Source: an uncultured Eubacteriales bacterium
GTDB taxonomy: Bacteria; Bacillota; Clostridia; Oscillospirales; Oscillospiraceae
Assembly: GCA_900554275.1 (NCBI GenBank)
Contig: USGS01000001.1
Span: 5,036 to 69,035 of the forward strand
Length of the DNA stretch: 64,000 bases
Direction: 5' to 3'
In this document: positions 1 to 62,216 of the stretch, piece by piece
Layout of the letters: each line of letters starts with the position of its first letter
Position numbering within the stretch: position 1 is the first letter of the stretch
Notes under the pieces: model-generated
Databases searched by the model: none
What the model was told of the DNA's origin: nothing
The model's input: only the letters and a program-made list of their open reading frames with translations
Made by a program: the position numbers and the translations under genes

Positions 1-290
1 TCAAGCTGCTCAATGACCTCCGCATCGTTTTCCACGTGCAGCGCAAGCCGATAGTTTCTATATAACTCCTTGCGTGCATCGTTGATCCTCTTCACATTTT
101 TAGCCTGATACTTTCGGTTGGCAGCCTTCTGCTTTTCATAGTAGTCCGGGCGACACACCCGCATGATCGTCGCATTGGATACTTTGTACTGAACTGCCAA
201 GGCCGTATACGGAACTCCCGCCTCATGAGCCTCTTTGATCGCCACTTTCTGTTCTTCCGTCAATTTGTGTTCTCGAGCCATAGACTTAGA
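1..290 (-). CDS. Partial HTH-domain protein (resolvase/transposase-type HTH), 5' end only; gene continues beyond window start
   Basis: Reverse translation from ATG (rc of 288-290) gives MAREHKLTEEQKVAIKEAHEAGVPYTALAVQYKVSNATIMRVC...; AAGGAGGA RBS 7 nt upstream; not in ORF track because no stop inside window. Confidence 0.45.
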
Positions 291-459
291 TCCTCCTTGC
301 TTCTTAATGGTTTACTTGATATTATCATATATCTTTATATATGTCAATACCTTTTTCTGCTTTTTTGAAAAAACTTTACAAGGCAGGCGGCTCTGTACTC
401 TTACGGCAGCAGGCGGCACTTGTCTAAGTGCCGCCTGCTGCCATAAAAAGATGTGTCCT

Positions 460-1794: not shown

Positions 1795-2308
1795 CGGCGA
1801 TCTTTACCTCCAACTCCGCCAGCCGCTTTGCCATACGCTCCGCCTGCCGGGCCGCGTGCAGCAGTTCCTCCCACTCCGCCGGGTGCAGCGTCCGCTGTCC
1901 TTCGTTGGGACGGATGGTCATTTTCAGCAGACCGCCAATACGCCCTATATCGGCCTTGAGCAGCGCCAACTCATCCAGCAGGGCAATAGCCAATTCCGTG
2001 TGCATGGAGATCGTGATCCGTTCGGTCAGCGCGGCGCGGCGCAAAAATTCGCTGGCGGACAACTCGCTGCGTTTTACACGCGCCAGGAAAGTGCGGTACT
2101 CGCCGTCGGACATTTTGGTTTTCACGATCCGCTTGCGGACGCTCCGCGGCTTCGCCGGCGGCGAAACAGCCGGCGCTGCGATCTCCGTATGTTCCTTGGG
2201 AGGGGCGATCTCCTCCCGGCTCGGTGGCGGGAGCGATCGCTCCCGCCGCCGGCCAGCATCGGACACCAATGCGTCCAACCCCGGCCTGTGCTGTTCATTC
2301 TCGTGCAT
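1781..2308 (-). CDS. MobC-like relaxosome accessory protein (start chosen at MHENEQ.. with GGGAGGA RBS; ORF extends to 2368)
   Basis: Located immediately upstream of relaxase, 4-codon overlap; C-terminal RFLARVKRSELSASEFLRRAAL-like MobC/RHH segment; start uncertain. Confidence 0.55.
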   Translation of the reverse strand: MHENEQHRPGLDALVSDAGRRRERSLPPPSREEIAPPKEHTEIAAPAVSPPAKPRSVRKRIVKTKMSDGEYRTFLARVKRSELSASEFLRRAALTERITISMHTELAIALLDELALLKADIGRIGGLLKMTIRPNEGQRTLHPAEWEELLHAARQAERMAKRLAELEVKIADGYC

Positions 2309-2401
2309 GGTATTCCTCCCGGGGGTTTGAGGTCTCCCCAGCCGTTGTTCGGCTATCAGGGTACCCAAAAGGGTACCCTGATAGGGAACTTGTCCTCAGT
2401 T

Positions 2402-2791
2402 TTACATACTACCGCTTTCCGCGGCACGCCGCCGGTCCGCATCGTACTTTTCCAGCATTCCATCTTCTTCCGAAATATCCCGCACGCATTCCCAGCCATC
2501 GATCTGTGCGTCTGCACCGACCAGGTAGTAGCATTCGTGGCAAGGTATCTTTTCCGGCCTCAGTGCGTTCCAATGGACGCAGCATTGACAGTTGCCGTGC
2601 AGCAGCTCGTTGGCATTGTGGAGTTTCGCACAGGCTATCCAGTAGCGGTAGGCCAGCACGTGGATATATTTCTCGTCCGTCTGGCGCTTCAGGGTTTTTA
2701 TGTCTTCGGGTGTCAAGCCACTCCTGCGATACTCTGCCAACAGGGTCTTCTCATCCGCCGTCAGGTGGGATGTACGGTTGTTTTTCGTCAT
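2402..2791 (-). CDS. Cysteine-rich VLP-domain protein (mobile-element associated)
   Basis: 129 aa with CxC...HGNCQCCVHW...CHEC cysteine pattern, typical partner of relaxase in Firmicutes ICE/IME; GAGGTGA RBS. Confidence 0.6.
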   Translation of the reverse strand: MTKNNRTSHLTADEKTLLAEYRRSGLTPEDIKTLKRQTDEKYIHVLAYRYWIACAKLHNANELLHGNCQCCVHWNALRPEKIPCHECYYLVGADAQIDGWECVRDISEEDGMLEKYDADRRRAAESGSM

Positions 2792-2804
2792 TTTCGATCA
2801 CCTC

Positions 2805-2990
2805 AAAATTGTTAGTCCGCTGTGCACCGCGGCTAACACCACAATAGTCGTTTTTCCGCGATTTGCAAGAGATTGGCCCATATACGGCGCACGCAAATGG
2901 GATATTTCCATTTGCGGCGGCATTGACCGCCGCAAAAAGCAGCACAGCACCACATAGAAATCGTTCTATGCGGTGCTGTGCTGCTTTTTT
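2805..2990. repeat. Copy A of a ~180-bp conserved promoter/leader module (paralog at 7990-8200); contains 10-bp-arm palindrome (2887-2919) and a strong bidirectional intrinsic terminator hairpin (2933-2990)
   Basis: gttagtccgctgtgcaccgcgg... / cgcacgcaaatgggatatttccatttgcg / aaaaagcagcacagcacc...ggtgctgtgctgctttttt; ~75% identical to 8021-8200. Confidence 0.6.
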
Positions 2991-3097
2991 AAGAAACAAA
3001 TTTGCTTCTCAAGTCAGATCGACTAGATCCGCCGCTTTTGCCATTGCCCCACCCTTCTGCTACAATACTCAAAAATGACCGGGAGGCGTAGCACATC

Positions 3098-3954
3098 ATG
3101 CGGAAGAAATTGGAGATCACGGAGAAGGAATTGGCGCGATTTGCGGGGTATCTGCGGCGGGAGGAGCGGGAAGCATCCACCATCGAATCTTACATGAGGG
3201 CGGCGAGGCAGTTTGCCGCGTGGCTGGATGGCCGCGTGGTGACGAAGGAGCTGGCGGCGGCGTGGAAGGCGCAGCTGCCGGAGCAGGGTTACCGCCCCGT
3301 CAGCGTCAATGCCATGCTGGCGGCGGTAAACAAGCTGTTCGTCTGCATGGGGCGGGAGGACTGCAAGGTGCGGTACCTCAAGCTCCAGCGGCAGATGTTC
3401 CGCAAATCGGAACGGGAGCTGACCCGTGCCGAATACCAGCGGCTGCTGGACGCAGCCCAGACGAGGGGGGACATACGCCTGCTGCTCCTGCTGGAAACCC
3501 TCTGCGCCACGGGCATCCGGGTCAGCGAGCTGCAATACATCACCGTGGAGGCGGCACGAAACGGCGTAGCAGAAATCGCACTGAAGGGCAAAATAAGAAC
3601 TATTCTTCTGCCCACAAAGCTGTGTCGCAAGCTATTGAAATACGCCAAAAAGTGTGGCATCGTCCACGGGCAGATATTCCTGACAAAAAGGGAAACAGGC
3701 TGTCCCGGAAATTCATCTGGGCGGAGATGAAAAAGCTGTGCGAGGCGGCGAAGGTGGCGCGGAGCAAGGTGTTTCCTCACAACCTGCGGGGGCTGTTCGC
3801 CCGGGCATTCTACGCCGCCTGCCGGGATGTGGTGCGGTTGGCGGACGTGCTGGGGCACAGCAGCATCGAGACGACCCGGATCTACCTGCTGTCCACGGCA
3901 AAAGAAAGTGCCCGCCAGCTGGACAGGCTCGGTCTGCTCAGCGGGTGGGCATAA
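3098..3954 (+). pseudogene. Tyrosine site-specific recombinase/integrase (XerC/D-phage integrase family), interrupted by -1 frameshift in A5 tract at 3685-3689
   Basis: N-terminal SAM-like domain in frame of 3098..3730; C-terminal catalytic region (HNLRG...LGHSSIETTRIY, R..H.xR..Y) in frame ending 3954; one extra A would give LTKKGNRLSRKFIW continuous protein. Confidence 0.7.
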
Positions 3955-4270
3955 TTATTATTTTGTAACATAGAAAACGGGCGAAAAATAGAATGATTAT
4001 CCGCGAATGTGCGTTTAACAAAATGGGCGCAGCTGGAAATGGTAGTGCGAAAAACGACAAAACGGCAACGCCGTGTCACTGAGAAATGGCTGGTTTGCTT
4101 GACTTTGTCCACAAAGTGTGGTACGCAACCGTTGGAATTTTGGCACAAACGCACAGGGCTTGTTTTGAAGTGTGTCGGAATAACAATTGCGTATATTTAG
4201 CCGATGAACTTTACGCCACCTGCAAGTGCATCCTTTTGCCAGATCGTCCCCGCAAGCGCCCCCCTGATAC

Positions 4271-4316
4271 GCAGCAGGAGCGCGGCAAAATGCCGCGCTC
4301 CTGCTGTCTTGTTTTA
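4271..4316 (+). terminator. Intrinsic terminator hairpin (gcagcaggagcgcggc-aaaatg-ccgcgctcctgctg + T-tract)
   Basis: 14-bp perfect stem followed by tcttgtttta; lies at 3' end of AT-rich non-coding stretch 3955-4313. Confidence 0.5.
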
Positions 4317-4574
4317 CGCCACAGGCTCTGCCGTCAGGTAGCACATATAGCGCGTTGTGCTCTCCGAATAGCTGAGATTGCTGAAATAGGCGCACTCGCC
4401 GCGGTCGATGAGCCATCCGTCCTCGTAGGGCACAGCCGTGATGCCCAGCAGCGCCGTCATATCGGCATCCGGCGCATCCTTCCCCGCCTCCCACGCTTCG
4501 CACCACTGGCGGATCAGCATCGCGGGCGTGTCCAGGCCGCTGATCACGTTGATGTGCTCCGCTGCCGACACCAT
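4314..4574 (-). CDS. Hypothetical protein (86 aa), last gene of ClpX-like operon
   Basis: ORF in operon arrangement with 4648..5118 and 5102..6229; no recognisable motif. Confidence 0.4.
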   Translation of the reverse strand: MVSAAEHINVISGLDTPAMLIRQWCEAWEAGKDAPDADMTALLGITAVPYEDGWLIDRGECAYFSNLSYSESTTRYMCYLTAEPVA

Positions 4575-4647
4575 CCGGGAGATACACGCTTACGAGGGAA
4601 ACAAAAACGCATGAATTTCTCAAAGTTTTTAGGTTAGACGCAAAACC

Positions 4648-5118
4648 TTATTGCATATCTCTCAGCTTTCCCGCCTCGCTGATTGACATCACGCAGACGA
4701 CCTCCAGCCCTTTCAAAATCCGCGGCATATCCTCATCACTGCGGATGGGGTCATCGGCGGAGTGGTGCTCTGCAAATAGTTCAAAGCGCGTGCCCTGCGG
4801 CAGTTCCGTCAGCTTGAGGAGATAATAAAACGTGCGCTCTCTGGGCGGGCAGCAGTGGAGCAGATAGCTCACGCAGCCCTCCAACCAGCGCTTTGCCCTC
4901 CGCAGCGCAGCACGGCCGGAGCAGGATGCCAGCGAGAACAGCAGCCTGTCGGCGATGTAGTCGGCCATAAGCGGTTTGGACAGCCCCTGTAAATGCTGCG
5001 GCAGCAGGATCGTCAGCGGTGTATCCAGCGCCAGCAGCCTGCGGCGCTGCTGATAGAGCTCATTGTCTACCTTGCGGATAAAATCCTCCGCCTGATGGCG
5101 GTCAAGAGACGTGGCCAT
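4648..5118 (-). CDS. Hypothetical protein (156 aa), overlaps ClpX-like gene stop by 17 nt
   Basis: Translational coupling with upstream clpX-like; no recognisable domain. Confidence 0.45.
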   Translation of the reverse strand: MATSLDRHQAEDFIRKVDNELYQQRRRLLALDTPLTILLPQHLQGLSKPLMADYIADRLLFSLASCSGRAALRRAKRWLEGCVSYLLHCCPPRERTFYYLLKLTELPQGTRFELFAEHHSADDPIRSDEDMPRILKGLEVVCVMSISEAGKLRDMQ

Positions 5119-6229
5119 AGACGTTACCTCCCAGTGTTACAGCGCCGGAGAGCTTGCCCTCCGCCAACGCATACAGCAGCGGCTGCACCAACGCTTCCAC
5201 CGCGCCGTCCAGCCCCCGGGCGCCCGTTCCCTGCACCACAGCCTCACAGGCCAACTGCTCCACCAGTTCATCCGGCAGCTTGAGCCGAACCTTGTGGGCG
5301 CGGAAAAATTTCCTGTACTTCACGAATGCTGAGAGGTTGGATTCAGTCAGGATGCGCCGCATCTGCTCCGTGGTCAACTGCTCCACCGGCACGAACCGAC
5401 CGATGCGGCCCATCAGCTCCCGTTCCATGCCGTAGGCGCAGAAATCCTCGGCGGTGCGCTGAGTGACCGTGGGATGGGACGGCTCGTCCCGCACGAAGCC
5501 GATAGGATCGGCGTATCTCTGTGCATCCCGCATCCTGCCGAACGCGCCGCCGAACAGGAACAGCAGATCGGCGGTGTTGATGGTCGCCCTCTCCGTGGTG
5601 ACCTCCATCCCCTCCACCATCTTCAAAAGCGCGTGCTGCGTCCCCTGACAGTACGATTGACGCCAATCATTACCGTGAGCGGACAGCTTGTCCACCTCAT
5701 CGATGAAAATGATGGCGTGTCGGACTCGAGGGTGCTCCTTGAAGCCCGCCAACAGGTCTGTCACGATGTCCGCCGCGTTTTTCCCGCGATACCCCGTCTC
5801 GGTGATGCCGGTGGCATCCACAGTGAGAAACGGCAGCCCGGCGATCCTGGCTGCCTCACGGATGATAGCCGTCTTGCCGCAGCCGCTGGGTCCATACAGC
5901 AGCAGATTGGTTCGGGGAACGCCGGCATCCCCGTTGGCGCGGAGCATCTGCTTCCAAACTGCCAGCGCCACGGCAGCCTTTGCCTGCTCCTGCCCGATGA
6001 TGGACTTATCCAGTTCCTGAACGATGTGCTGCGGCGTGATAGATGGCGCAGATACAGCCTCCTCCGTGACCTCGTCAGACGCTTCCAAAATATGAAACGA
6101 GGTTTGGAGACAACCGCGGCAGACCATCCTGCCGGTGCTGCCCACCACATGATCGTTGCCGAGGATGTTGATGACGCCCTTGCACAGGGCGCAGCGCGAG
6201 ACGACCGGGGTTCGTTTTTTCTTGCTCAT
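5102..6229 (-). CDS. ClpX-like AAA+ ATPase (ATP-dependent unfoldase paralog) with N-terminal C4 zinc-ribbon
   Basis: CALCKG...CRGC zinc finger; IGQEQAK; Walker A LLYGPSGCGKT; Walker B IIFIDEVDKL; sensor/GYVG-region; AGGAG RBS. Confidence 0.8.
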   Translation of the reverse strand: MSKKKRTPVVSRCALCKGVINILGNDHVVGSTGRMVCRGCLQTSFHILEASDEVTEEAVSAPSITPQHIVQELDKSIIGQEQAKAAVALAVWKQMLRANGDAGVPRTNLLLYGPSGCGKTAIIREAARIAGLPFLTVDATGITETGYRGKNAADIVTDLLAGFKEHPRVRHAIIFIDEVDKLSAHGNDWRQSYCQGTQHALLKMVEGMEVTTERATINTADLLFLFGGAFGRMRDAQRYADPIGFVRDEPSHPTVTQRTAEDFCAYGMERELMGRIGRFVPVEQLTTEQMRRILTESNLSAFVKYRKFFRAHKVRLKLPDELVEQLACEAVVQGTGARGLDGAVEALVQPLLYALAEGKLSGAVTLGGNVYGHVS

Positions 6230-6411
6230 GTGATCACTCCTTATTTCAGAATGATCGGGGGTGGATGTAAAAGACGTTTCTCCTTATTTTCATCATCAAA
6301 CCTCCATGCAAAGTACTGATATGCCGAATGGCACGACACCCGTTTTCACACGCGGTGCTTTTCTCTGTGGTCGGCGCATAGAAAAAAAACGCACCTCTCC
6401 GTCTATTTTAT

Positions 6412-6447
6412 GTCACAAATAATATTCATTTTTGTGACTTTGTCAAT
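6412..6447 (-). promoter_or_regulatory. Consensus sigma-A promoter (TTGACA-16-TATTAT) for ClpX-like operon, overlapped by 8-bp-arm inverted repeat GTCACAAA...TTTGTGAC (putative operator)
   Basis: minus-strand reading ttgacaaagtcacaaaaatgaatattatttgtgac ~190 nt upstream of ATG at 6229. Confidence 0.5.
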
Positions 6448-6650
6448 AGCGGATTTGCTGTTTCTGTACTTTTTGCGTCAATTCGTGCACCATGCATATA
6501 TATCACCTGCATTTTGCACGCCATAATTGGACGTTTTGAACATATTTCATTGGTACGTCACACAAAACAAACGCAGGCGACTCCCGCTTACAACGGAGAG
6601 CCGCCTGCTGCTCGATGTTCATTTCAGCCTGCATTCGATCGACGCACGGA

Positions 6651-7292
6651 CTATCGCCCCGCCCTGCCATAGCAGTCGCATATAAGCTCAATAATGGGGC
6701 GCAGTCTCGGAGGCACAAGAGAGAGTTTCTCTATCAGGTCCTTTTTGACCTCGGGCGCAAGCGTTCGGGACAGCTCCGCAATCTCGTCGATGGTAATCCT
6801 GTGCCTGTCCAGATCCGAAAGCGCGCTGATAACAACAGCGCCCTCATCCGAGAGGCCATCAAACAGCTTTGCCGCGGAATGAACCAGCAGCACCTCATGA
6901 CCGGGGGCATATTCGACACGTGTCTTAGGGCCTGTGCTCAGGTACTTCGGCAGCTTCGGGTCTTCATCGGACAGACCGATCCTGCGCCTCGCAAGCTCTG
7001 TAGCCGGAAGTATCCTCCAGTGGTTTCTCCGGGCAAGGGCCTGCGCCACAGCTTCATGAGACGGCAGCGCAGGGACATCGTCACACTGTTTCGGGTTCAG
7101 CCGATACAGGCCCATGCAGATACGCTCTATACGCTCACTCTGCGCAAGGCGGGACAGCGCCTTGCGGACCGCATCATAGCTGCCCAGCGCATCGAAATCC
7201 TCCACAGCAAACACCGCATCGTGCGGCTTGGCATACATAAACGAAATGATCTCCCGTTCACACGCGTACAGCTGCTCCTGCATCGTCCCCAC
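6651..7292 (-). CDS. DUF6088-like (AbiEi-type wHTH) family protein
   Basis: 213 aa; pattern R..R.G.Y...P......A.ALA....W.I.P....A..LGLS...P..Y...GP.. resembling DUF6088/AbiEi-like proteins common on Firmicutes mobile elements; assignment from memory only. Confidence 0.45.
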   Translation of the reverse strand: MGTMQEQLYACEREIISFMYAKPHDAVFAVEDFDALGSYDAVRKALSRLAQSERIERICMGLYRLNPKQCDDVPALPSHEAVAQALARRNHWRILPATELARRRIGLSDEDPKLPKYLSTGPKTRVEYAPGHEVLLVHSAAKLFDGLSDEGAVVISALSDLDRHRITIDEIAELSRTLAPEVKKDLIEKLSLVPPRLRPIIELICDCYGRAGR

Positions 7293-7561
7293 CTCCGTTC
7301 GTACTTGTCACAAATTATACTGGTTTTCGCAGAATTGTCAAGTTTGGCGCATTTCGGCTATTCCATTTCGAGGCAAGCTACCCACGTATCTTGCCCCACT
7401 ATGCTGCAACCGCACGGCTCATGCAACAGGCTGCCGGCCCACATTTGGACAATCAGTGAATGATCAGTCGCCGATCCCTTGCACCAACATGGGACAGATA
7501 TACCACATGTAGCCATCCCCCACAGCCAGGGAGGACAGACACTCTCCCCGCATCCATAGTA

Positions 7562-7927
7562 TCAAGACAGAGGACAGATCCCCTTCCACGTGAGAGAAAA
7601 CCGATACTCATTAGGCTTGCGGAGAGCCTTCATGCTCCGCACTTCGATCCATCCTCCGGCCTCAAGCTCCCGGATATACCGGCAGAGCGACGAGTGCGGG
7701 ATGCCGTACTTCTTCGCCGCACTCCGGGGCAGGCGAAATTCGCGCCGCGGCCCGGCCTCCATCGCCATACACAGGAAACAGTATCGCGCTCCGTGGGAAA
7801 GCCGCTGAAACCGATACGACAGCAGCAGCGTATTGCCGAGCTGGATGAAACGCTTTTCATCGCAGTCTACCCGCGCCGTCAGCCACGGCCGGAGCGTCGC
7901 TCCGGCTTTTCTTCTGGAAGCGCTCAT
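7562..7927 (-). CDS. Small HTH-domain protein
   Basis: 121 aa; RLPRSAAKKYGIPHSSLCRYIRELEAGGWIE helix-turn-helix segment; GGAGGTGA RBS. Confidence 0.45.
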   Translation of the reverse strand: MSASRRKAGATLRPWLTARVDCDEKRFIQLGNTLLLSYRFQRLSHGARYCFLCMAMEAGPRREFRLPRSAAKKYGIPHSSLCRYIRELEAGGWIEVRSMKALRKPNEYRFSLTWKGICPLS

Positions 7928-7989
7928 CTCGTCACCTCCCGTGCCGCAGTGCCTGCATCTTTCGCCGCCGGCATATAAGTGTTATTGGT

Positions 7990-8200
7990 GTTATTGGTCA
8001 TGTGTGACCACCTCCATAGTGTAAGTCCGCTGCGCGCCGCGGCCAATAACACATTAGCCCATATTTCACCATAAATCAATGGATCTGCCCGTATATGGCG
8101 CACGCAAATGGGATCTTTCCATTTGCGTCAGTGTCCTATATGCAAAAGCAGCACAGCCCCGCGTGTTCCACGCGATGCCGTGCTGCTTTGTCGTGACAAC
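7990..8200. repeat. Copy B of conserved promoter/leader module; includes remnant 5' end of a second Cys-rich-VLP-like gene (minus-strand mini-ORF 7925-8001, MTNNTNNTYMPAAKDAG..), palindrome 8099-8128 and terminator-like hairpin 8146-8195
   Basis: gtaagtccgctgcgcgccgcgg.../cgcacgcaaatgggatctttccatttgcg/ aaaagcagcacagcc..gtgctgcttt; N-terminus MTNNTNN.. parallels MTKNNRTSHL of 2402..2791. Confidence 0.55.
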
Positions 8201-8309
8201 GGAAGTCTTCAGTCCCCGTTCGCAGATTGACGATAACAAACTATGCAGATGTCAGACTACACCAACGCCGCATGAAGCACTGCCGCTAACATATTGCTTC
8301 CTCTCCGCG

Positions 8310-9473
8310 TCATGTAAGCTTAGTAAAGTTCAGTTCATCCATCTGGTCTGCCAGCCAGTCCATAGCCTCGGTTTCGTTGGAGAAGGAAGAGTCGAAGATA
8401 ACAAAGTCGTTCTCACTGTAAGTCAGGTGGCCGTCATCGCCCATCATGCAGTCGGGGTATACAACAAAGATGACGTCCTCATAGGGCTCATCGTCCCAAG
8501 GATTGTCAAGTACGACCTTGGCAACGCCGATGATGCCGCAGTACCCGCTAAAACCGTGGGTCATATCAAAGAAGTAAGTGCCAGGCATCTTGGGCTCAAA
8601 GTAATACAGAGACCAGAACTCGGAATCCAGGACGGGCATGTCTTTGGTGAGAATGTCCTCGGCAGCATAAGACAGAGCGGAAGACATAGTCAACTCTTCA
8701 AAACGGGTACGCTCGGAAACGGACAGCCCGTCAGAGGGGCGGAAAAAGTCCTTCAGGCCGGAGACAGTATATGTCTTACTGCACTGCTCGGGGACAGTAT
8801 AGCCCAAAGAAGCAAAATACTGCTGGTCGAAAACGGCAGTCAGGGTGATTTCATCGCCGTTGGACAGGTTGTAGTTATTGGCGAAGCTATAGGTCACACC
8901 CTTATACATCGCATCATCAGAGACCAGGCCGACAATGGCCTCGCCACCGCCAGAGGCACCGATGAGGGCAACGGAAATGACGTCCTCGGAGAAGGGGTCA
9001 AAAGGCAGGCCGTCAGCCAGGCCTTCCACGGTATAGGTGATCTTGCCGCCGCGCAGCTCGAAGTCCAGCTTCTCATTGGTAGGGTTATCGAAGCTGACGG
9101 TCAGCGTCACCTTGTCGCCGTTGGACAGGTTGTCGGACTTGTCTGCCACCACAGAGACTCCCTCCAGAGCGGCCCAGATCTTCTCGGTCTTCAACAGGTT
9201 CTCCTCGCTGAAAAGGGCTTCAACATCCTTATCGTTCTTGACGTCGATGCCGGCGATCTTCTGATACACGGAGTAGCTGTCAAAGGAATACTCCAAATGA
9301 CCATATCCGTCTGCGCCGGATACGGCATCGATACTCACGTAATCTGTCAGGTCAATACTCTTGCCGCTGCAGGCGGTCAAGGTCAGCGCCGCCGCCATCA
9401 ACAGCAGGGACAGGCAAATAGTTCGGAAATTCGTGTGTTTCATAATAGTCTCTCTCCTATTGTTTTTATTCAC
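8310..9473 (-). CDS. Secreted lipoprotein (signal peptide + lipobox LTAC)
   Basis: MKHTNFRTICLSLLLMAAALTLTACSG; 4-nt overlap with upstream sigma-fusion gene. Confidence 0.7.
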   Translation of the reverse strand: MNKNNRRETIMKHTNFRTICLSLLLMAAALTLTACSGKSIDLTDYVSIDAVSGADGYGHLEYSFDSYSVYQKIAGIDVKNDKDVEALFSEENLLKTEKIWAALEGVSVVADKSDNLSNGDKVTLTVSFDNPTNEKLDFELRGGKITYTVEGLADGLPFDPFSEDVISVALIGASGGGEAIVGLVSDDAMYKGVTYSFANNYNLSNGDEITLTAVFDQQYFASLGYTVPEQCSKTYTVSGLKDFFRPSDGLSVSERTRFEELTMSSALSYAAEDILTKDMPVLDSEFWSLYYFEPKMPGTYFFDMTHGFSGYCGIIGVAKVVLDNPWDDEPYEDVIFVVYPDCMMGDDGHLTYSENDFVIFDSSFSNETEAMDWLADQMDELNFTKLT

Positions 9474-11164
9474 CCCTCATAGGGCCGCCATATCCATTCG
9501 ATGTTGTCCAAGATTGTATCGTACTGCTCGATCATCGCCGTATATGTGTTCTGCGTTTCGGGCGTAAATTGGACGTCGGTGGGACGGCTGGCGACGAATT
9601 GCCGGATGATGCCGCTGGCGGGGTGTGCGTATGTGCCGAGGTACGTGTAGTCGGGCCAGTGCAGATAGTCCGTGCTGTCAGGGCCAAACAGCGTGACAGA
9701 AAATAATTCGCCCGCGCCTGCGGCATAGCTTTCGACCTCATACACGGTGTAGTACTCCCGCAGGCCGTCATCGCTGAAATTGTTGTCAATAATGACCTTA
9801 CCCTCCCAATCCGCCGGGAAATGGAGGATAAGCTCCACCATCTCAACAGTAAAGTCGCTTTTGGGCGTGAACTCGTTGGGCTTCAATTCCAGCCGCTCGG
9901 CGGTTTTGACAAAGGTGTCGCCGTCTGTTTCGCCCGGGAAATAGTAATAATCCTCGTAATCGGCATCCATTCGGTCTTTATAAAACTGTTCTGCCTTACC
10001 GACATAAGAGATACCGGGACGCCCCATACAGCGAAGGTAGGTATCATTGATGAGATAGATTGAATCGTAATAGCTGCCGACATCGCCGACCAGCCGAAGG
10101 CCGTCATCGTCATAGGCGTAGAACTGGGCATCCGTCAGCCACTCCGCTGTCCCGGGATTGTTGGCTGTCAGAAGCTCAGGGATACTGTCCTTCTCCAGGT
10201 CAAAGGTGGTGTAATACTTGATCTCCAAGCCGCTGTCCGTGACACCTCGCCGGAGCAATTCTTCATAAGCAGCGTATGCCTCCGCCGCCTGTTCTTCCAC
10301 CGACACTGCCGTTTGCACGACAGCATCCGACACATCGACAGCTCTGTCGACGACTGCATTTTTTGCCGCGGCTGCGCCGCCTGCGACCAGGCCTGCCGCC
10401 AGCACACCTGCGGCGATTTTGACCGCCAAACCGCCCGCGGCCTTGCCGGTGACCGCAGCCGCCGCGCCCGAAGCAACCACATCGGTTGCCGTGGCCGCGG
10501 CAGCGCCCGCCGCCGTAAGCCCGGCGGGCAGCGGCATCGCCTCGGCCTCCTGCCGCAGCAGCAGGGTCAGCAGCGCCATAGGTGCGAGGCCGTACAGCTT
10601 CGTGTCCTGCTTTTCCAGCGCTTCCACCTTGGACTTGACCTTCCGCCGCCCATAGTTCAGACGGCTTTTTACCGTGCCCTCTGACACCTGCAGCGCCTGG
10701 GCGATCTGTGACACAGACAGTTCATCCCGATAATACAGCAACAGACACAGCTTCTGATCCTCCGGCAGTCCGTCGATAATCTCCGCCACCAGGCGCACCG
10801 TCTCCTGATGCTCCAGCCGCACCTCCGGCAGATTCTCCTCCCGGTCGTCCGCCCAATCCGGCGCTGGGGCATCGTCCTTTTGCAGCTCGGTGAACAGGGC
10901 AGGTTTTTTCTTCTTCAGATAGTCCCGGCACTTGTTGGCCACGATCATATATAGCCACGAGGGGAATTTCTCCGCCTCCTTCAGCTGCGACAGTCTCCCA
11001 AGGGCGGCCAGGTACGCCTCCTGCGTCAAGTCCTCCGCGTCCTGCGAATTGCCGCAGACCTTCAGCGCCACGAAGTACACCTCCCGACAGGTGGCGTTAT
11101 AGAGCTCCTCCCACGCGGCAGTGTCCCCCTGTACGGCGCGAGGAACAGTTTTCGCCCAGTTCAC
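9470..11164 (-). CDS. ECF (sigma-70 family) sigma factor fused to a transmembrane segment and ~330-aa extracytoplasmic C-terminal domain (single-chain sigma/anti-sigma-like)
   Basis: Region 2 (DLTQEAYL..FPSWLYMIVANKCRDYLKKKK) and region 4 (LPEDQKLCLLLYYRDELSVSQIAQALQVSEGTVKSRLNYGRRKV), then Ala/Gly-rich hydrophobic stretch, then acidic/aromatic-rich domain. Confidence 0.75.
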   Translation of the reverse strand: MNWAKTVPRAVQGDTAAWEELYNATCREVYFVALKVCGNSQDAEDLTQEAYLAALGRLSQLKEAEKFPSWLYMIVANKCRDYLKKKKPALFTELQKDDAPAPDWADDREENLPEVRLEHQETVRLVAEIIDGLPEDQKLCLLLYYRDELSVSQIAQALQVSEGTVKSRLNYGRRKVKSKVEALEKQDTKLYGLAPMALLTLLLRQEAEAMPLPAGLTAAGAAAATATDVVASGAAAAVTGKAAGGLAVKIAAGVLAAGLVAGGAAAAKNAVVDRAVDVSDAVVQTAVSVEEQAAEAYAAYEELLRRGVTDSGLEIKYYTTFDLEKDSIPELLTANNPGTAEWLTDAQFYAYDDDGLRLVGDVGSYYDSIYLINDTYLRCMGRPGISYVGKAEQFYKDRMDADYEDYYYFPGETDGDTFVKTAERLELKPNEFTPKSDFTVEMVELILHFPADWEGKVIIDNNFSDDGLREYYTVYEVESYAAGAGELFSVTLFGPDSTDYLHWPDYTYLGTYAHPASGIIRQFVASRPTDVQFTPETQNTYTAMIEQYDTILDNIEWIWRPYEG

Positions 11165-11493
11165 TCCTGCGCCTCCGCTTCCTCCGGGGCACGCAGTCGG
11201 ACGACGGCCCGGATCAACGCGATAGGATAGGCGACCCAGCCCGTGATCATGGCCACCACCAGCCGCAGCATATAGAAGATGATCATGACAGGCAAACTTC
11301 CCACCAAGCCAAAGGTGATGACCTTACCACTGAGCTGCCAGCCGTAGGGTACACCGGCAAAAAAGATGGCAAAGAGCAGCACGCCCCACCATTCCTTGTC
11401 GCCGCTGCTGGTGGCAAGAATGACACCTACCACCACGCCGATCAGGCCCTTAATGATGAGCTTTTTCAGTTCTTCTTTTCTCGTGTTCATTTT
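11161..11493 (-). CDS. Small integral membrane protein (3 TM), start at MNTRKEEL (GGGAGGA RBS); ORF track extends to 11622
   Basis: Hydrophobic helices; ATGA overlap with sigma gene start. Confidence 0.5.
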   Translation of the reverse strand, partial: KMNTRKEELKKLIIKGLIGVVVGVILATSSGDKEWWGVLLFAIFFAGVPYGWQLSGKVITFGLVGSLPVMIIFYMLRLVVAMITGWVAYPIALIRAVVRLRAPEEAEAQE

Positions 11494-11715
11494 GTTTCCT
11501 CCCGTTTCTCCTCTGCTTTGTTTGTGTTGTCCCAACCTCTGGGGAATTGAAGCGATTGAAACAGTGCTGCCAGCGCTTCCCGGATAAGCTGACCCAGCCG
11601 GTCCATATAGACGTACCTCCATCTCTGTGATGCCTATAAGACGAGCACGGGTCTATGACGGTTTTATGAAATAGAAAAACTTTTTTAGTTTCCAAATTCC
11701 GCCACCGTCAAGCGT

Positions 11716-11790
11716 ATTGACCAGTATAGCGGTCAATATCTAAACCGAGTGTAGCATACAATAGCCTCAGTTGCAACCAATACTGGTCAA
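11716..11790. promoter_or_regulatory. 11-bp inverted repeat TTGACCAGTAT...ATACTGGTCAA (plus internal TTGACC-N8-GGTCAA) in divergent promoter region upstream of XRE gene
   Basis: seen directly at 11716-11726 and 11780-11790. Confidence 0.35.
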
Positions 11791-11811
11791 AAATTTGCCT
11801 GAGGTGAGAGA

Positions 11812-12063
11812 ATGGAACAGAAAATCAGACGTGACCGCAATATGGGCGATAATCTGCGGCGGCTGCGGAAAACACACAAGCTGTCACAGGAGAAGCTGTG
11901 CGCCGAATTGCAGCGGCGTGGCTGCGACATCGGGCGCACGACCTACGCCAAGTATGAGTCCGGTGAGCTGAACATCCGCGCCAGTGTGCTTATCGAGCTG
12001 CGGAGCATTTACGACTGCGCGTATGAGGAATTCTTTACGGGGCTGGAGATGCGGAACGAGTAA
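11812..12063 (+). CDS. XRE-family HTH transcriptional regulator
   Basis: 83 aa; LRRLRKTHKLSQEKLCAEL...TTYAKYESGE; GAGGTGAGAG RBS. Confidence 0.75.
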   Translation: MEQKIRRDRNMGDNLRRLRKTHKLSQEKLCAELQRRGCDIGRTTYAKYESGELNIRASVLIELRSIYDCAYEEFFTGLEMRNE

Positions 12064-12136
12064 CGCGCCTCCCGGCATCCTCTTTCCTTTCGGATGCGCC
12101 CATAATGCAGAAATACGCGCAGCGATCTCCAACAAA

Positions 12137-12175
12137 CTGAGCCGCGGCCAAATAGCCGCGGCTCAGTTTTGCACT
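12137..12175 (+). terminator. Intrinsic terminator (ctgagccgcggc-caaata-gccgcggctcag + TTTT)
   Basis: 12-bp perfect stem and T-tract downstream of XRE gene. Confidence 0.55.
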
Positions 12176-12190
12176 GCGCCTTCCAGAACC

Positions 12191-12222
12191 GCACGCAAAT
12201 AGAAATTTCCCATTTGCGTGCG
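12191..12222. promoter_or_regulatory. Copy C of palindromic operator GCACGCAAAT-N11-ATTTGCGTGC, ~20 bp upstream of -35 of promoter (tgacgt-16-tataat) for 12341 gene
   Basis: same 10-bp arms as in copies at 2887-2919 and 8099-8128, same position relative to a promoter. Confidence 0.5.
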
Positions 12223-12340
12223 CCTAAAACGCCGTAAGCTAGTGACGTCCGAAGTCCTCACCCGTATAATATAGCCAAATGCAGCGCTGTGTAATTTATC
12301 CTACAAATGGCAATACTATCCAGTACAGGGAGGGTACAAA

Positions 12341-12589
12341 ATGGAACTCGACATTAAAAAGGATCAGGGCATCGCTCTGATCTGGCTGACTCGGGCAGAG
12401 TCCGCAGACCCCGCCGTCAGTGAACATCTGAAGCCGATCTACGCAGAGTGCCGCGCACAGGGGCTGATGCCTGTCGTCATGCACTCCGGCAGCGGAGATC
12501 TCTACGCCAACACCCGCGATCTGCTGGTCGATACCCGCCGCCGTCAGGCGGAGAAGGCGGTGCGGGCAGAGCGGGCGGCCTCACGCTGA
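12341..12589 (+). CDS. Hypothetical small protein (82 aa)
   Basis: ORF downstream of predicted promoter; no recognisable domain. Confidence 0.4.
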   Translation: MELDIKKDQGIALIWLTRAESADPAVSEHLKPIYAECRAQGLMPVVMHSGSGDLYANTRDLLVDTRRRQAEKAVRAERAASR

Positions 12590-12716
12590 GAATATAGGGA
12601 GGCCGATGGGCCTCCCTATATCACATTTGGCCTTGCATACCGCCGCAGCGTATGATACAATGTAGTCTATAATCAGATTGCATTATCTAAACAAAATTGG
12701 TAGGTCGAGGTGTGCT

Positions 12717-13727
12717 ATGGAACAGAAAATTTCGGAAACCAGTGAGATCCTGCTGTATCAAAACGGCGACGACAAGGAGTACATCCGCGTTATCTTTCAA
12801 GATGAAAATTTTTGGCTGACACAGGCCGGTATGGCAGAGCTGTTTGACTCCAGCAAATCCAACATCAGCGAACACCTGACACATATCTTCGATGAGGAAG
12901 AACTTGATAAAGCCGCCTGCATGAGAAAATTCGGAATTTCCGAATTTTCTACGAAACCCACCCACTTCTACAACCTCGACGCCATCATCGCCGTCGGCTA
13001 TCGCGTGAATTCCAAAAAGGCCACGCGCTTCCGCCAGTGGGCGACGAGGACGCTGAAAGAGTACATCCAAAAGGGCTTTGTGCTCAATGACGAGCTGATG
13101 AAAAACGGCCACCCCTTCGGCAAGGATTACTTCGAGGAACTGCTGGAGCGCATACGTGAGATCCGCGCCAGCGAGCGCCGGGCCTATCAGAAAATCGCAG
13201 ATGTCTTCGAGCAGTGCAGCTACGACTACGACAAGAACAGCGAGACCACGAAAGCCTTTTACGCCTTCGTACAGAACAAGCTGCATTATGCCGTCACCGG
13301 CAAAACCGCCGCGGAGCTGATCTCCGAACGGGCCACGCTGGACAGCCCCACTATGGGTCTGACTAACTGGAAAGGTGCGCCGGACGGAAAAATTCTGAAA
13401 AGCGACACGCTGGTGGCAAAGAACTATCTGAGTGAAAAGGAACTGTCCCGTCTGAATCGCTTGGTGACCATGTTCATCGACTATGCCGAGCTGATGGCGG
13501 AGGATGAACAGTTGATGTCCATGCAGGACTGGCTGGAGGAGACGGATCGCTTCCTGACCAACAATCGCCGTCAGGTACTGGAGAGCAAAGGACACATCTC
13601 TCGAGATGCAGCCATGAAGAAAGTCGGTGCGATTTACGATGAATTCCGCAGGAAGCAGGACGCGGAATACATCTCCGAGTTCGACCGCGAGATAGCAAAA
13701 TATCTGAAAGGCGGTGAGACTCAATGA
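12717..13727 (+). CDS. RhuM-family virulence/Fic-DOC-associated protein
   Basis: YQNGDDKEYIRVIFQDENFWLTQAGMAELF... characteristic RhuM N-terminus; stop overlaps recombinase start (ATGA). Confidence 0.7.
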   Translation: MEQKISETSEILLYQNGDDKEYIRVIFQDENFWLTQAGMAELFDSSKSNISEHLTHIFDEEELDKAACMRKFGISEFSTKPTHFYNLDAIIAVGYRVNSKKATRFRQWATRTLKEYIQKGFVLNDELMKNGHPFGKDYFEELLERIREIRASERRAYQKIADVFEQCSYDYDKNSETTKAFYAFVQNKLHYAVTGKTAAELISERATLDSPTMGLTNWKGAPDGKILKSDTLVAKNYLSEKELSRLNRLVTMFIDYAELMAEDEQLMSMQDWLEETDRFLTNNRRQVLESKGHISRDAAMKKVGAIYDEFRRKQDAEYISEFDREIAKYLKGGETQ

Positions 13728-15892
13728 TCGAACGCTTTGACATCGCGGGCTACTGCCGCATCTCCGTGGATGAGGAGCTGGATCGGGACAACACCTCCAT
13801 CGAGAACCAAAAGGCGATCATTACCGACTTCGTCAAGCATCGCTTTCCGGACAGTACCTTGACCTTCTACGAGGACCGCGACCGCTCCGGCTACACCTTC
13901 GAGCAGCGGGAGAATTACCAGGCCATGCGCCGGGGGCTGATGTCCCGCAAATATGACATCCTCATCGTCAAGGACTTCTCCCGCTTCTCCCGCCGCAACT
14001 CCCGCGGTTTGGTGGAGCTGGAGGACCTGCGGGACGCAGGCGTCCGCATCATCTCCATCGGCGACAATATCGACTTCCCCAACGACGATGACTGGCTGAA
14101 GATTCAGTTTCAATTCCTCATCAATGAGATGCCCGTCACCGACACCAGCAAAAAGGTCAGGTCCGTCATCAAGCGCCGCCAGACCGATGGCAAATGGCTC
14201 TGCGCCGCGCCCTACGGCTACCTCATCAACAAGGCGCAGCAGTTCGAGATCGTCCCCACCGAGGCAGACATCGTGCGGCAGATCTTTCAGCTTTACAACG
14301 ATGGCTGGGGCTACAAGAAGATCGCCAACCACCTCACCGACCAGGGCATCCCCACGCCCCGTATGTCCGAGCGGGAGCGCCGCGAAGCCCAGGGCGAGAG
14401 CGTCAAGCGCGCCGCCAAGTCCGCGTGGGCCATCGTCACCGTGCAGGGCATATTGGACAACGATTTCTACATCGGCACGCTGCGGCAGGGCAAATACACC
14501 CGCCGGAAGATCAACGGCGCGGAGGTCAAGCGGGACGAGAGCGACCACCTGGTGTTCGAGCACCACCATCAGGCCATCATCGATTACCGCACCTTCGCCA
14601 CCACCCGCGCCCTGCGCCAGCAGCGCACCACCAGCCATTACCGGGGCGTAAAGATCAACGATAACACCTACTCCGGCTTTCTCTTCTGCGGCGACTGCGG
14701 CAGCCCCATGTTTGCCATGAGCCGTTCCGATCTCAAGGACGCCTACCGCTGCGGCGAGTACCACAGGCGGGGTCTGAAGGCCTGCACCAGCCACCATATC
14801 CGGGTAGACAGGCTGGACCAGCTGCTGAAGCTGTATATCCAAAAGGTGAAGGACAACTCCGCTTCCATGCTGGAGCGGCTCAACGACGATCTTGCCCGCG
14901 AGCAGGAGGACGTGGCCGAGACGGAGCGCGCCGCCGAAAACCTGGAGCAGCTGCTGCTGGACGCGCAGGAGGAGCTGAAGGCCACCAAGCGCCAGCGCAT
15001 CCGGGACATCATGAAGCACCCGGAAAACGAGGAAACGCTGGCGGAGACCTACGACGAGCTGGAAAACGACCTCCTGCACCGCATTGAGGGACTGCACCAT
15101 CGGATCGCCATGGCTGAGGACAAGCGCAACACCATCATCCGGGTCAACCGCGCCGCCAAAACGGCTATGGAGGTCTTTGATGACCTGCTGCACAAGGAGC
15201 GGCTGGACCGCAGCGACCTGCAGCTCATCATCGACAAGATCAAGGTCTACGAGGATCACCTGGAGGTCTGGCTCAAGTCCGACATCGACACGCTGCTGCG
15301 CTGCGGCACGCTGCCTGAGGAGGGTGCGCCCGCCGCCGTGGAGGGTGATATTATCTCCTTCCCCAAAGACGCGGAGAGCGCCCCTCCCATCACCCTCATT
15401 CAACAGACCTCCAACCGCCCCGACAAGGTCTTTCGTGTCAATGTCATCAGCAACGGCGACCCGTTGGAGATCTACACCACCCGGGACGGGGAGGTCATCT
15501 TCAAGAAGTATTCCCTCATCAGCGGGCTGGAGGATTTTGCCGCCCAGTTCTGCGACACGCTGGCCCGCAGCACCGACTTCACCGCCGCCGTCACCGACCG
15601 GGACGCGGTCATCGCCATCGCCGGGGCGGGCAAGCGGGAGCTGCTGGGCAAGCGGATCTCCGTGGAGCTGGAGCGCATCATGGGCGAGCGCGGGGTGTAC
15701 TGCGGGCCGGGGGTGGCCGTCAGCGACGAGAACGGGCAGTTCCGCGTCACCGTGGCCGCGCCCATCCTCTGCGAGGGCGACGTGCTGGGCGCGGTGCTGT
15801 TCCTCTCCGCCGATGACCGCACCGGCGGCGAGACGGAGTGCAAGCTGGCCCAGACCGTGGCCGCCTTTCTGGGCAAAAATATGGAGAGCTGA
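13724..15892 (+). CDS. Large serine recombinase (resolvase/TndX-SpoIVCA family) fused in-frame to the C-terminal GAF-like domain of stage V sporulation protein T (SpoVT); probable right end of an intervening element in spoVT
   Basis: N-term resolvase domain (catalytic S in YCRIS), recombinase and Zn-ribbon (CGDCGSPM...CGEYHRR..C) domains, coiled coil; residues ~560-722 GDPLEIYTTRDGEVIFKKYSLISGLEDFAAQF...GDVLGAVLFLS....ECKLAQTVAAFLGKNMES align with B. subtilis SpoVT 30-178. Confidence 0.8.
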   Translation: MIERFDIAGYCRISVDEELDRDNTSIENQKAIITDFVKHRFPDSTLTFYEDRDRSGYTFEQRENYQAMRRGLMSRKYDILIVKDFSRFSRRNSRGLVELEDLRDAGVRIISIGDNIDFPNDDDWLKIQFQFLINEMPVTDTSKKVRSVIKRRQTDGKWLCAAPYGYLINKAQQFEIVPTEADIVRQIFQLYNDGWGYKKIANHLTDQGIPTPRMSERERREAQGESVKRAAKSAWAIVTVQGILDNDFYIGTLRQGKYTRRKINGAEVKRDESDHLVFEHHHQAIIDYRTFATTRALRQQRTTSHYRGVKINDNTYSGFLFCGDCGSPMFAMSRSDLKDAYRCGEYHRRGLKACTSHHIRVDRLDQLLKLYIQKVKDNSASMLERLNDDLAREQEDVAETERAAENLEQLLLDAQEELKATKRQRIRDIMKHPENEETLAETYDELENDLLHRIEGLHHRIAMAEDKRNTIIRVNRAAKTAMEVFDDLLHKERLDRSDLQLIIDKIKVYEDHLEVWLKSDIDTLLRCGTLPEEGAPAAVEGDIISFPKDAESAPPITLIQQTSNRPDKVFRVNVISNGDPLEIYTTRDGEVIFKKYSLISGLEDFAAQFCDTLARSTDFTAAVTDRDAVIAIAGAGKRELLGKRISVELERIMGERGVYCGPGVAVSDENGQFRVTVAAPILCEGDVLGAVLFLSADDRTGGETECKLAQTVAAFLGKNMES

Positions 15893-15904: not shown

Positions 15905-15940
15905 CACCGCCCGCCCGGGAGACCCGGGCGGGCGGCGGTT
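15905..15940. terminator. Bidirectional intrinsic terminator with 26-nt palindrome gcccgcccgggagacccgggcgggcg (identical copy at 26704-26730)
   Basis: perfect GC-rich stem, flanked by A/T runs on both sides. Confidence 0.6.
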
Positions 15941-38292: not shown

Positions 38293-38820
38293 ATGACCCC
38301 ATTTTTCTCTCAAAAAACGAAATATCGCAAATATGAAACGGCAAATTCCGGCTTCACCATGGTCGAGCTTCTCACCGTCATCGCCATACTCCTCCTGGTG
38401 GGCCTTATTGCCGTTTTTTCGTTGAGCAAGCTCCGCCGCTCCCTGCGCCAGCACGAGCTGGACGCCAGGGCTGAGATCATCTACGTGGCCGCACAGAACC
38501 GCATGGCCGAGCTGCGTGCCGCGGGCTGCGAGGGCTTATACAGCAAGGGCTTGAGCGATGGAGACAACGGTGTCTATGCCATGGCTTTCGACGGCACGCA
38601 CATGGATGAAAGCTCCCGCGACGTGGAATTCTGCTATCTCTATGTCAACGATGCTTCGGATAAACGCACCGGTGCGCCCGCCGCCCTCCTTCCCGACACC
38701 GCGGTGGACAAGGACCTGTGGAACGGCTGCTGGTGCATCGAATATGCCCCCTCAACCGGCAGTATTTACGCTGTTTTTTACAGCGAGTCCCCCCTCCCCT
38801 CCCCTCCCACACCGCTCTGA
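38293..38820 (+). CDS. Minor (pseudo)pilin with prepilin N-terminal cleavage/methylation domain
   Basis: NSG|FTMVELLTVIAILLLVGLIAVF; ends in C-rich tract where giant ORF continues in -1 frame. Confidence 0.7.
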   Translation: MTPFFSQKTKYRKYETANSGFTMVELLTVIAILLLVGLIAVFSLSKLRRSLRQHELDARAEIIYVAAQNRMAELRAAGCEGLYSKGLSDGDNGVYAMAFDGTHMDESSRDVEFCYLYVNDASDKRTGAPAALLPDTAVDKDLWNGCWCIEYAPSTGSIYAVFYSESPLPSPPTPL

Positions 38821-62050: not shown

Positions 62051-62216
62051 CATGGGTATGCTCCTCTCCGTGCCGGTAGTTTTACCATTAAGCACTTGTT
62101 TAATCATCATGGCCGTAGTATACTGTCCCTGCGCCCAAAAGTCAACAGCTCCGCCCCACTCTCTGCCAAAGGGGCGAAAAGCATTTCCGTTCGGGCGAAA
62201 AGGGAGGATACCGACA

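Follow-up and report, generated by a model that had tools for sequence, protein, structure and literature searches.

The systems closest to the locus reported here are the intervening elements of spore-forming bacteria and the integrative mobilizable elements (IMEs) of the Tn4451/Tn4453 type. The intervening elements compared in this study were skin with its recombinase SpoIVCA (in sigK of B. subtilis and C. difficile), SPbeta in spsM (SprA/SprB), vfbin in spoVFB, vrin in spoVR, gin in gerE and yin in yabG. All documented intervening elements lie in mother-cell genes and are excised only in that cell (PMC4191935), and by the accepted logic the mother cell, being a dead end, can excise them safely. 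In skin(Cd) of C. difficile, the gene for the recombination directionality factor (RDF), CD1234, is on the mapped sigmaE promoter list (Saujet et al. 2013). The Tn4451/Tn4453-type IMEs use a large serine recombinase (LSR) as sole integrase, possess their own relaxase with no visible conjugation apparatus, and insert inside genes; Tn4451 crosses over at a 2-bp sequence within short repeats, has low target specificity, and its recombinase TnpX needs no RDF (PMC5704250). Here we describe a 64,000-nucleotide stretch of DNA (the window; contig USGS01000001.1, positions 5,036 to 69,035) from an uncultured Eubacteriales bacterium of the Oscillospiraceae, in which a mobile island has very probably been inserted at codons 31-34 of the sporulation regulator gene spoVT. 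A 722-residue open reading frame (ORF) at the edge of this island is, with good confidence, its attR junction, put into spoVT by a serine recombinase.

The hybrid ORF (13724-15892, plus strand) starts with ATG and encodes a complete LSR whose reading frame continues through the final 142 codons of spoVT. From Pfam searches, the 722-aa protein was found to possess a Resolvase domain (PF00239; residues 7-158, E=4.5e-18), a Recombinase domain (PF07508; 178-301), a Zn_ribbon_recom domain (PF13408; 316-369) and a SpoVT_C domain (PF15714; 602-721, E=1e-35). The R-x-S nucleophile motif is present as Y-C-R-I-S at residues 10-14, an alignment to CcrB spans residues 6-512, and the phrog_95 integrase family was matched at E=6e-89. 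By these matches the N-terminal part is a large serine recombinase, and its catalytic activity is predicted. An earlier sequence-only reading of this DNA had likewise described a complete recombinase running in frame into the C-terminal domain of SpoVT; its SpoVT_C assignment was borne out by Pfam, and the four-domain architecture recurred in 119 of the 120 best database matches (75-99% identity, 711-741 aa).

That reading had the SpoVT segment begin near residue 560 and extend over about 165 aa. The segment is present, but its homology begins at residue 578 (GDP) and the purely host-derived portion comprises the 142 aa from 581 to 722. The hybrid therefore joins LSR residues 1-580 to SpoVT residues 34-175, with GDP (578-580) encoded by a core that both genes share. 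On the DNA level, the host contributes the 3' end of spoVT, from codon 34 through codon 175 and the stop (15465-15892, plus strand). This part contains the SpoVT_C match, and from 15455 on the window is 99.3-99.8% identical to six intact spoVT loci (L105-L110). The spore_V_T model TIGR02851 matched the ORF only over profile positions 18-180, at residues 566-721, and its score of 130.9 fell under the cutoff of 235.9 because the AbrB-type N-terminus of SpoVT is missing. SpoVT proper combines an AbrB swapped-hairpin N-terminus and a GAF-like C-terminus in one polypeptide; the 722-aa ORF does not, and the reconstituted 175-aa SpoVT carries both PF04014 and PF15714. A motif search found no AbrB-type SpoVT N-terminus encoded in the 64-kb window; the sequence-only reading had noted its absence from the ORF.

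All four attachment (att) sites were recovered, and they have in common a 10-bp core, GGCGACCCGT, located at 15455-15464 (codons 578-581) and read as G-D-P in both genes. The attR site (15437-15464, plus strand) consists of the element-side half-site GTCAATGTCATCAGCAAC followed by this core, and it was the sole match in the window to the att pattern of the family. The junction had been estimated at codons ~550-565 (nt ~15370-15440), a placement that the recovered core supersedes. The crossover dinucleotide is predicted from the four-way alignment of attB, attP, attL and attR to be GA at 15458-15459; around it, 18 of 25 positions show dyad symmetry in attP and 9 of 25 in attB.

The single exception among the 120 best matches was a 606-aa protein (P0068; 99% identical) without SpoVT_C. 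It is the same as the window protein through ...VISNGDP, after which a 26-aa tail, SQMTLAWWERFCAAMDDLAKRQGWKS, completes it. On L004, the contig that carries this protein, identity with the window persists to nt 15464 and gives way to unrelated sequence, and window positions 1724-2936 are matched further on; the breakpoint falls inside an imperfect inverted repeat. This arrangement identifies L004, by sequence comparison, as a circular permutation of the window element and hence its attP form (excised circle or tandem junction). No terminal overlap was found in L004, so that it represents a circular or tandem junction and not a complete circle. A second attP form was encountered on contig L041.

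The reciprocal junction was obtained by scanning metagenome contigs with the right arm of attP. On three contigs (L085, L086 and L088), spoVT codons 1-33 (MKATGIVRRIDDLGRVVIPKEIRRTMRIREGDP) run in frame into the recombinase tail. The predicted 59-aa attL hybrid peptide of this element variant was matched exactly on 58 contigs (cluster P0255), other clusters of attL peptides held 24-578 members, and the 175-aa SpoVT predicted for this host after reconstitution was matched exactly on six contigs (P0241). The 5' fragment of spoVT, whose recovery the sequence-only reading had proposed as a check, is thus present at the other junction in the same element type and host species (L097, P0255). We also found empty sites in that species. 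On the left, the empty-site contig L108 equals the attL contig L097 at 99.0% up to its nt 1194; on the right, it equals the window at 99.5% from its nt 1185 (window 15455). The two matches overlap by 10 bp, which are the core. From the core onward L097 and L004 are 99.8% identical, the homology of the window to empty-site contigs begins only at 15455, and the genes downstream are the same as in the window (WbqC, GLF, an ABC transporter and others).

These comparisons indicate that the junctions are products of reciprocal site-specific recombination, attB x attP <-> attL + attR. The attP site forms part of the recombinase coding sequence, at its 3' end, and is read in the frame of spoVT. Because the core is also read G-D-P in both genes, each integration in this orientation swaps the two C-termini and creates two hybrid ORFs: attR encodes recombinase(1-580)::SpoVT(34-175), and attL encodes SpoVT(1-33) joined to the 26-aa native recombinase tail. 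In-silico joining of the attL and attR halves gave an intact spoVT and a 606-aa recombinase, both of which were found in nature. The island is therefore an intervening element in the sense that it interrupts a sporulation coding sequence and that precise excision restores the ORF, and spoVT is split and presumably non-functional while the island is integrated. The att-site evidence accords with the earlier view of a mobile element in spoVT that lies to the left, with its recombinase gene at the edge beside the 3' fragment.

Three side observations concern the att sites. In L025 (6700-6830), a metagenome-assembled genome of an uncultured Oscillospiraceae member, the 3' end of the recombinase abuts a reverse-complemented 5' fragment of spoVT (...ATCAATAACGG directly followed by GTCGCCCTCGCGG...). 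The island is thus joined to spoVT in the opposite orientation there, and the recombinase ORF runs through antisense spoVT; possible origins of this joint are an attP variant whose central dinucleotide is inverted (TC, not GA), an inversion product or a misassembly. It was the only attL-like junction encountered when 10 kb upstream was examined in each of the 80 genome loci. In the 725-aa fusion P0062 the junction reads ...VNVIREGDPLEIY..., with host-type R-E replacing element-type S-N just left of the core, which suggests that the exchange point shifts occasionally or that the att site undergoes gene conversion. Lastly, the 194-aa protein P0122, from a 3-kb contig, is identical to the SpoVT of this host from residue ~11 (DDLGRVV...) and is preceded by an unrelated N-terminus of 30 aa; a different element inserted ~20 codons upstream of the att site may have produced this junction, or the protein may be a chimera.

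We further assessed whether the reading frame across attP is maintained. The linker of ~60 codons that separates the recombinase body from attP differs in both length and sequence among the loci, yet no in-frame stop was found in 79 of them. The other two frames of the linker contained on average 3.5 and 4.2 stops per 60 codons (5.1-5.8 in the 41 low-GC members), and an open frame would be expected from base composition alone with a chance of ~6%. The native recombinase tail is conserved well past the attP arm; a simple count of synonymous to non-synonymous codon differences in this tail, 44:55, is weak evidence of constraint. Taken from these sequence comparisons, translation across attP, and hence the swap of C-termini on integration, is a conserved property of the family that is maintained by selection.

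The distribution of the element was examined with one genome per species, which gave 182 relatives, and junctions were analyzed in the best 80 of these. The same junction was present in 78 of the 80, and so in at least 78 reference species. The join was identical in 75 (...V-I-S-x-GDP followed by LEIY...), with both the half-site GTCAATGTTATCAG and the core GGYGACCC conserved, and three further loci carried variant cores. The taxa among the best 80 included Oscillospiraceae, Oscillibacter, Flavonifractor, Agathobaculum, Acutalibacteraceae, Ruminococcus (including the cultured R. albus KH2T6), R. flavefaciens and some Lachnospiraceae. Other cultured carriers encountered were Agathobaculum butyriciproducens DSM 100391, A. 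hominis M2, Oscillibacter sp. GMB15532, Eubacterium sp. MSJ-21 and Brotocaccenecus cirricatena CLA-AA-H272. In none of the 78 junction loci did the 3' part of spoVT show signs of truncation; the match extended to its final residues (query 720-722). The two halves of the hybrid protein differ in their relatedness: in one group of proteins (P0010-P0024) the recombinase part is 95-99% identical and the SpoVT part ~91%, and in another (P0025-P0027) the values are 85-89% and 98-99%. This discordance points to horizontal transfer between hosts. Together with the differing cargo described below, these patterns portray a widespread element family that moves between hosts.

To identify which genes accompany the recombinase, every element protein of the window was compared with the 80 family loci. 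Only one gene besides the recombinase was conserved across the family, namely orf82 (12341-12589, plus strand), which encodes a small protein without a known family. Homologues of orf82 were found no more than 4 kb upstream of the recombinase in 38 of the 54 loci with enough flanking sequence, mostly 76-157 nt upstream and on the same strand, and a motif search added ~15 more, including those of R. albus and R. flavefaciens. A word-index homology search gave close relatives only; an exhaustive search extended the family to 271 clusters. No family assignment was obtained for orf82 in Pfam, NCBIfam or PHROG, and its AlphaFold 2 model (pLDDT 78.6) had no Foldseek match in the PDB at E<=0.001. Its synteny and size fit an RDF, and we infer that orf82 is a partner of the recombinase, as a candidate RDF or regulator. 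The conserved module of the family reads orf82 -> recombinase -> attP. It was noted that the top match of the exhaustive orf82 search, the 1511-aa protein P0319, matches orf82 residues 28-62 at 20 separate places; either orf82-like segments are repeated in this protein or the matches are a low-complexity artefact.

The upstream regions of orf82 were seen by eye to have in common a bipartite motif resembling forespore promoters. A first pass with strict regular expressions for sigma-factor consensus sequences gave no match, and these were replaced by -35/-10 matrices built from mapped C. difficile promoters (43 sigmaF/G, 47 sigmaE and 23 sigmaK; Saujet et al. 2013, Tables S6 and S7). In the window, the predicted forespore-type (sigmaF/sigmaG-like) promoter of orf82 lies at 12288-12318 on the plus strand (TGTGTA-N16-GCAATACTA) and ends 22 nt before the ATG. 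It scored 13.8 with the sigmaF/G position weight matrix, a value reached by none of 200 shuffles, and on both strands of the 64-kb window only two sites, itself included, scored at least as high. The other (62077-62106, minus strand; TGATTA-N15-GTAAAACTA, score 16.6) is located upstream of or within a heavy-metal P-type ATPase region. A sigma70-like promoter match, GTGACG-N17-TATAAT (10/12 matches), also lies upstream of orf82, at 12242-12270 on the plus strand; such a match was not enriched across the family.

Across the family, orf82 upstream regions scored above 1187 control upstream regions with the sigmaF/G model (Mann-Whitney p=8e-16), and the distance from the end of the best site to the start codon was 18-32 nt in 25 of 28 regions. 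With GC-matched controls the area under the curve (AUC) was 0.89 (p=3e-11) for sigmaF/G, and no enrichment was found for sigmaE (0.56), sigmaK (0.57) or the sigmaA consensus (0.41). Strict intergenic controls, which are more AT-rich than the test set, still gave 0.83-0.85. Information content was limited to the two promoter blocks, and the flanks were at random identity (median 23%). A hold-out set of 11 previously unused loci, in most of which the gene starts with TTG or GTG, replicated the signal with the same positioning (AUC 0.78, p=9e-4). The host spoVT promoters, used as positive controls, displayed the same geometry and similar sigmaF/G scores.

Between orf82 and the recombinase the window carries a rhuM-family gene (12717-13727, plus strand; Pfam Virulence_RhuM, E=4e-101). 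Its stop (13727) overlaps the recombinase start (13724) in the sequence ATGA, in line with the translational coupling proposed earlier; rhuM was found in only 12 family loci and therefore falls outside the conserved module. No terminator was found on the plus strand between 12200 and 15900, which makes co-transcription of orf82 with the recombinase plausible. The intrinsic terminator of spoVT (15907-15935, plus strand; a 13-bp GC stem followed by a T-run) would now also end the orf82-rhuM-recombinase transcript.

The right-hand part of the integrated island occupies window positions 1-15464, as delimited by the circular permutation in L004. Walking outward from the relaxase gene, the contig L089 carries the element for 1683 nt to the left of the window without reaching attL. 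The attL of the window copy thus lies beyond position 1 and at least 1.7 kb further left, which makes the island at least 17.1 kb long (at least 15.5 kb of it in the window); the minimum of 13.7 kb given by the sequence-only reading is surpassed. On the minus strand, the island encodes a MobA/VirD2-type relaxase (460-1794; PF03432, E=1.4e-10), a NikA-like relaxosome accessory protein (1781-2308; PF21983), an AAA+/ClpB-like ATPase that is also cargo in L004 (5102-6229; Pfam and L004 comparison), and a sigma-70-family protein with a long C-terminal extension (9470-11164; gene table of L001) that is absent from L004. DNA 88-94% identical to the NikA-like gene is found beside attL in L097-L104 and beside attP in L004. 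The other island genes in the window comprise DUF6088, an HTH protein and tyrosine-integrase fragments. No phage structural genes were seen in the window part of the element, and type IV secretion system genes were likewise not seen in the 17 kb available, which do not include the element's left part. The element has an integration and excision module of its own, LSR plus att sites, as IMEs do. Because of its relaxase and NikA-like genes and its variable metabolic cargo, we consider the element an integrative, mobilizable genomic island by gene content, and not a prophage remnant.

The cargo at the left end of related elements includes citrate-lyase accessory genes and Fic (L086), a sugar ABC transporter and ROK kinases (L088), and glycosyltransferases, a methyltransferase and IS110 (L097-L104). 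Compared to L004, the window copy has a ~4-kb insertion at 8150-12140 with the 564-aa sigma-70-family protein, small membrane proteins and an HTH_3 regulator, which indicates cargo turnover within nearly identical islands. In L097-L104 a 139-aa DUF4143/PD-(D/E)XK-like ORF directly follows attL, and the window copy has an intact relaxase and two more genes at 1-1794; the L097-type variant may be a deletion derivative that has lost the relaxase. Two adjacent tyrosine-integrase fragments (3098-3954, plus strand; 210 and 75 aa, with Phage_integrase and a SAM-like N-terminal domain) are probably the remnant of another element nested in the island. Outside the island, two giant host ORFs with almost no recognisable domains, at 38718-45032 (plus strand; 2104 aa, GLUG motif) and 50168-57850 (minus strand; 2560 aa), presumably encode surface proteins.

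An intriguing question is when such an island would leave spoVT. In C. difficile, spoVT is a forespore-line gene dependent on sigmaF and sigmaG, SpoVT regulates the sigmaG regulon, and a spoVT mutant forms no heat-resistant spores (PMC3789822). Since spoVT is expressed in the forespore, excision in the mother cell would not rescue it. The motif upstream of orf82 suggests excision in the forespore, and a forespore promoter signature on recombination genes would be unprecedented for such elements. We regard it as close to an even call, leaning slightly to the negative, that a forespore-type (sigmaF/sigmaG) promoter drives transcription of orf82, and with it of the recombinase, and that the island would excise in the developing spore. 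In the proposed sequence of events, forespore sigmaF and sigmaG would turn on orf82 and the recombinase, the island would leave spoVT in the developing spore when and where spoVT is needed, and SpoVT would then be made. The island would re-integrate once the directionality factor is gone, or it might ride in the spore as a circle and re-integrate at germination. The swap of C-termini could set an 'integrated-state' recombinase bearing the SpoVT GAF domain apart from a 'free-state' form with the native tail, the two having different directionality. That the whole amounts to a programmed, reversible germline rearrangement with recombinase isoforms of different directionality, and to a widespread island-encoded gate on spore maturation in gut clostridia, is a tentative and rather unlikely proposal.

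Several findings weigh against the explanation as a whole, the insertion of the island as well as its forespore excision. Contigs in the attP form numbered only two, against hundreds in the integrated form. The attL of the window copy was found neither in the window (attL-arm search with 3 mismatches allowed, 0 matches) nor within 1.7 kb further left, and the relaxase of the window copy is missing from the sister variant whose attL was recovered (L097 type). On the promoter side, the matrices stem from C. difficile, which belongs to a different order from the host; the orf82 test sequences are of shared ancestry, though their flanks are randomised; the window copy also has the good sigma70-like promoter at 12242-12270; and the forespore motif was not found in the recombinase's own upstream region. 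Similarity of orf82 to any known RDF was not detected in sequence families or by Foldseek against the PDB. Finally, forespore excision removes the island from the germline unless it is re-integrated, a cost without documented precedent in sporulation.

The main rival to forespore excision is that a highly conserved stretch of spoVT, a gene dispensable for growth, simply serves as a landing site. Under this explanation spoVT is inactivated, carriers sporulate poorly or not at all, the island excises only sporadically for transfer, and neither the in-frame fusions nor the resemblance to forespore promoters signifies anything for development; we give this explanation a real but minority chance of about a third. 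The relaxase and NikA-like genes indicate a transfer-oriented lifestyle, occupied and empty alleles are both common, relatives such as Flavonifractor plautii and Oscillibacter valericigenes have been classed as non-spore-formers (bioRxiv 10.1101/2022.02.25.481979), and a sigma70-like promoter lies upstream of orf82 in the window copy. However, the forespore-type motif of orf82 is kept in position and sequence across very divergent members, is specific to sigmaF/G and was replicated in the hold-out; the 3' part of spoVT is untruncated in all 78 junction loci; and the ORF across attP is under selection.

A skin-like course, in which sigmaE or sigmaK drives excision confined to the terminally differentiated mother cell and spoVT is restored there, is very improbable. 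The recombinase gene does lie at the element edge beside the 3' fragment of a sporulation gene, as in skin, and precise reconstitution of spoVT is possible. The target, however, is transcribed in the forespore under sigmaF/sigmaG and regulates the sigmaG regulon, so that a restored mother-cell copy would be no help (PMC3789822); known intervening elements all interrupt mother-cell genes (PMC4191935); and the sigmaE and sigmaK models were not enriched upstream of orf82, unlike the sigmaE-listed CD1234. Mother-cell expression of the target gene, typical of skin, was thus lacking, and control of the recombinase or RDF by sigmaE or sigmaK, also typical of skin, was lacking by computational evidence only. 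The sequence-only reading had called the element skin-like, which stands as to an intervening element in spoVT and is not supported as to excision in the mother cell.

Its alternative, a domesticated recombinase::SpoVT_C fusion protein that has become fixed in the genome and taken on a new function, is more improbable still. The architecture recurs with an intact frame in hundreds of sequences, as such a protein would; it is refuted because attP forms, empty attB alleles and the reciprocal product at attL all exist in the same species and because the two halves differ in their identities, and the gene lies at the edge of a variable mobile island. An assembly chimera or a sequencing error deleting a stop codon, for which nothing speaks beyond the prior plausibility of such faults in metagenome-derived sequence, is practically negligible, as the exact 722-aa protein is present on three independent contigs from different samples and assemblers, and hundreds of related junctions fall at the same nucleotide and follow att-site logic.

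If forespore excision were true, the dead-end logic would be broken and a reversible germline rearrangement would have to be explained. Apart from this, spoVT is annotated as missing or as a recombinase fusion in hundreds of gut Oscillospiraceae and Ruminococcus genomes, which affects genome-based predictions of sporulation. Through the variable metabolic cargo of the islands, accessory metabolism is genetically linked to the capacity to sporulate. The family is also a source of natural serine integrases whose attB/attP pairs are well defined and highly conserved, and of a candidate new class of partner protein.

A search of the literature, covering one library of open-access papers only, found no earlier description of an element interrupting spoVT. 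Similar to Tn4451/Tn4453, the island uses an LSR as sole integrase, carries a relaxase, is inserted within a gene and crosses over at 2 bp (predicted GA here). Unlike Tn4451, its family is dedicated to one spoVT site and keeps a conserved small partner gene, orf82, whereas TnpX needs no RDF; we know of no sporulation link described for Tn4451-type IMEs. In active lysogeny, the Listeria prophage phi10403S splits the developmental regulator gene comK, and its reversible excision permits expression without loss of the prophage. That system is a prophage with a tyrosine-type recombinase in a non-sporulating context, and reversible excision of the island is hypothetical. In myxophage Mx8, attP lies within the int gene and integration changes the C-terminus of the integrase. 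Mx8 Int is a tyrosine recombinase; the island's recombinase instead gains a folded host domain (the GAF-like domain of SpoVT), and the reciprocal product is a host N-terminus with the recombinase tail.

The comparison with the skin-type elements is the closest. As in those elements, a sporulation coding sequence is interrupted, an LSR gene lies at the edge, precise excision rebuilds the gene, and no genes outside the recombination module are common between elements. The island differs in that its target is a forespore-line regulator and theirs are mother-cell genes, and in that it is mobilizable, with relaxase and metabolic cargo, whereas theirs are prophages or prophage remnants. The promoter motif of its candidate partner gene is of the sigmaF/G and not the sigmaE/K type. 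Unlike the skin-type elements, the island has attP inside the recombinase ORF, with both junctions encoding in-frame hybrids, and its family spans several families of gut Clostridia, not a few strains.

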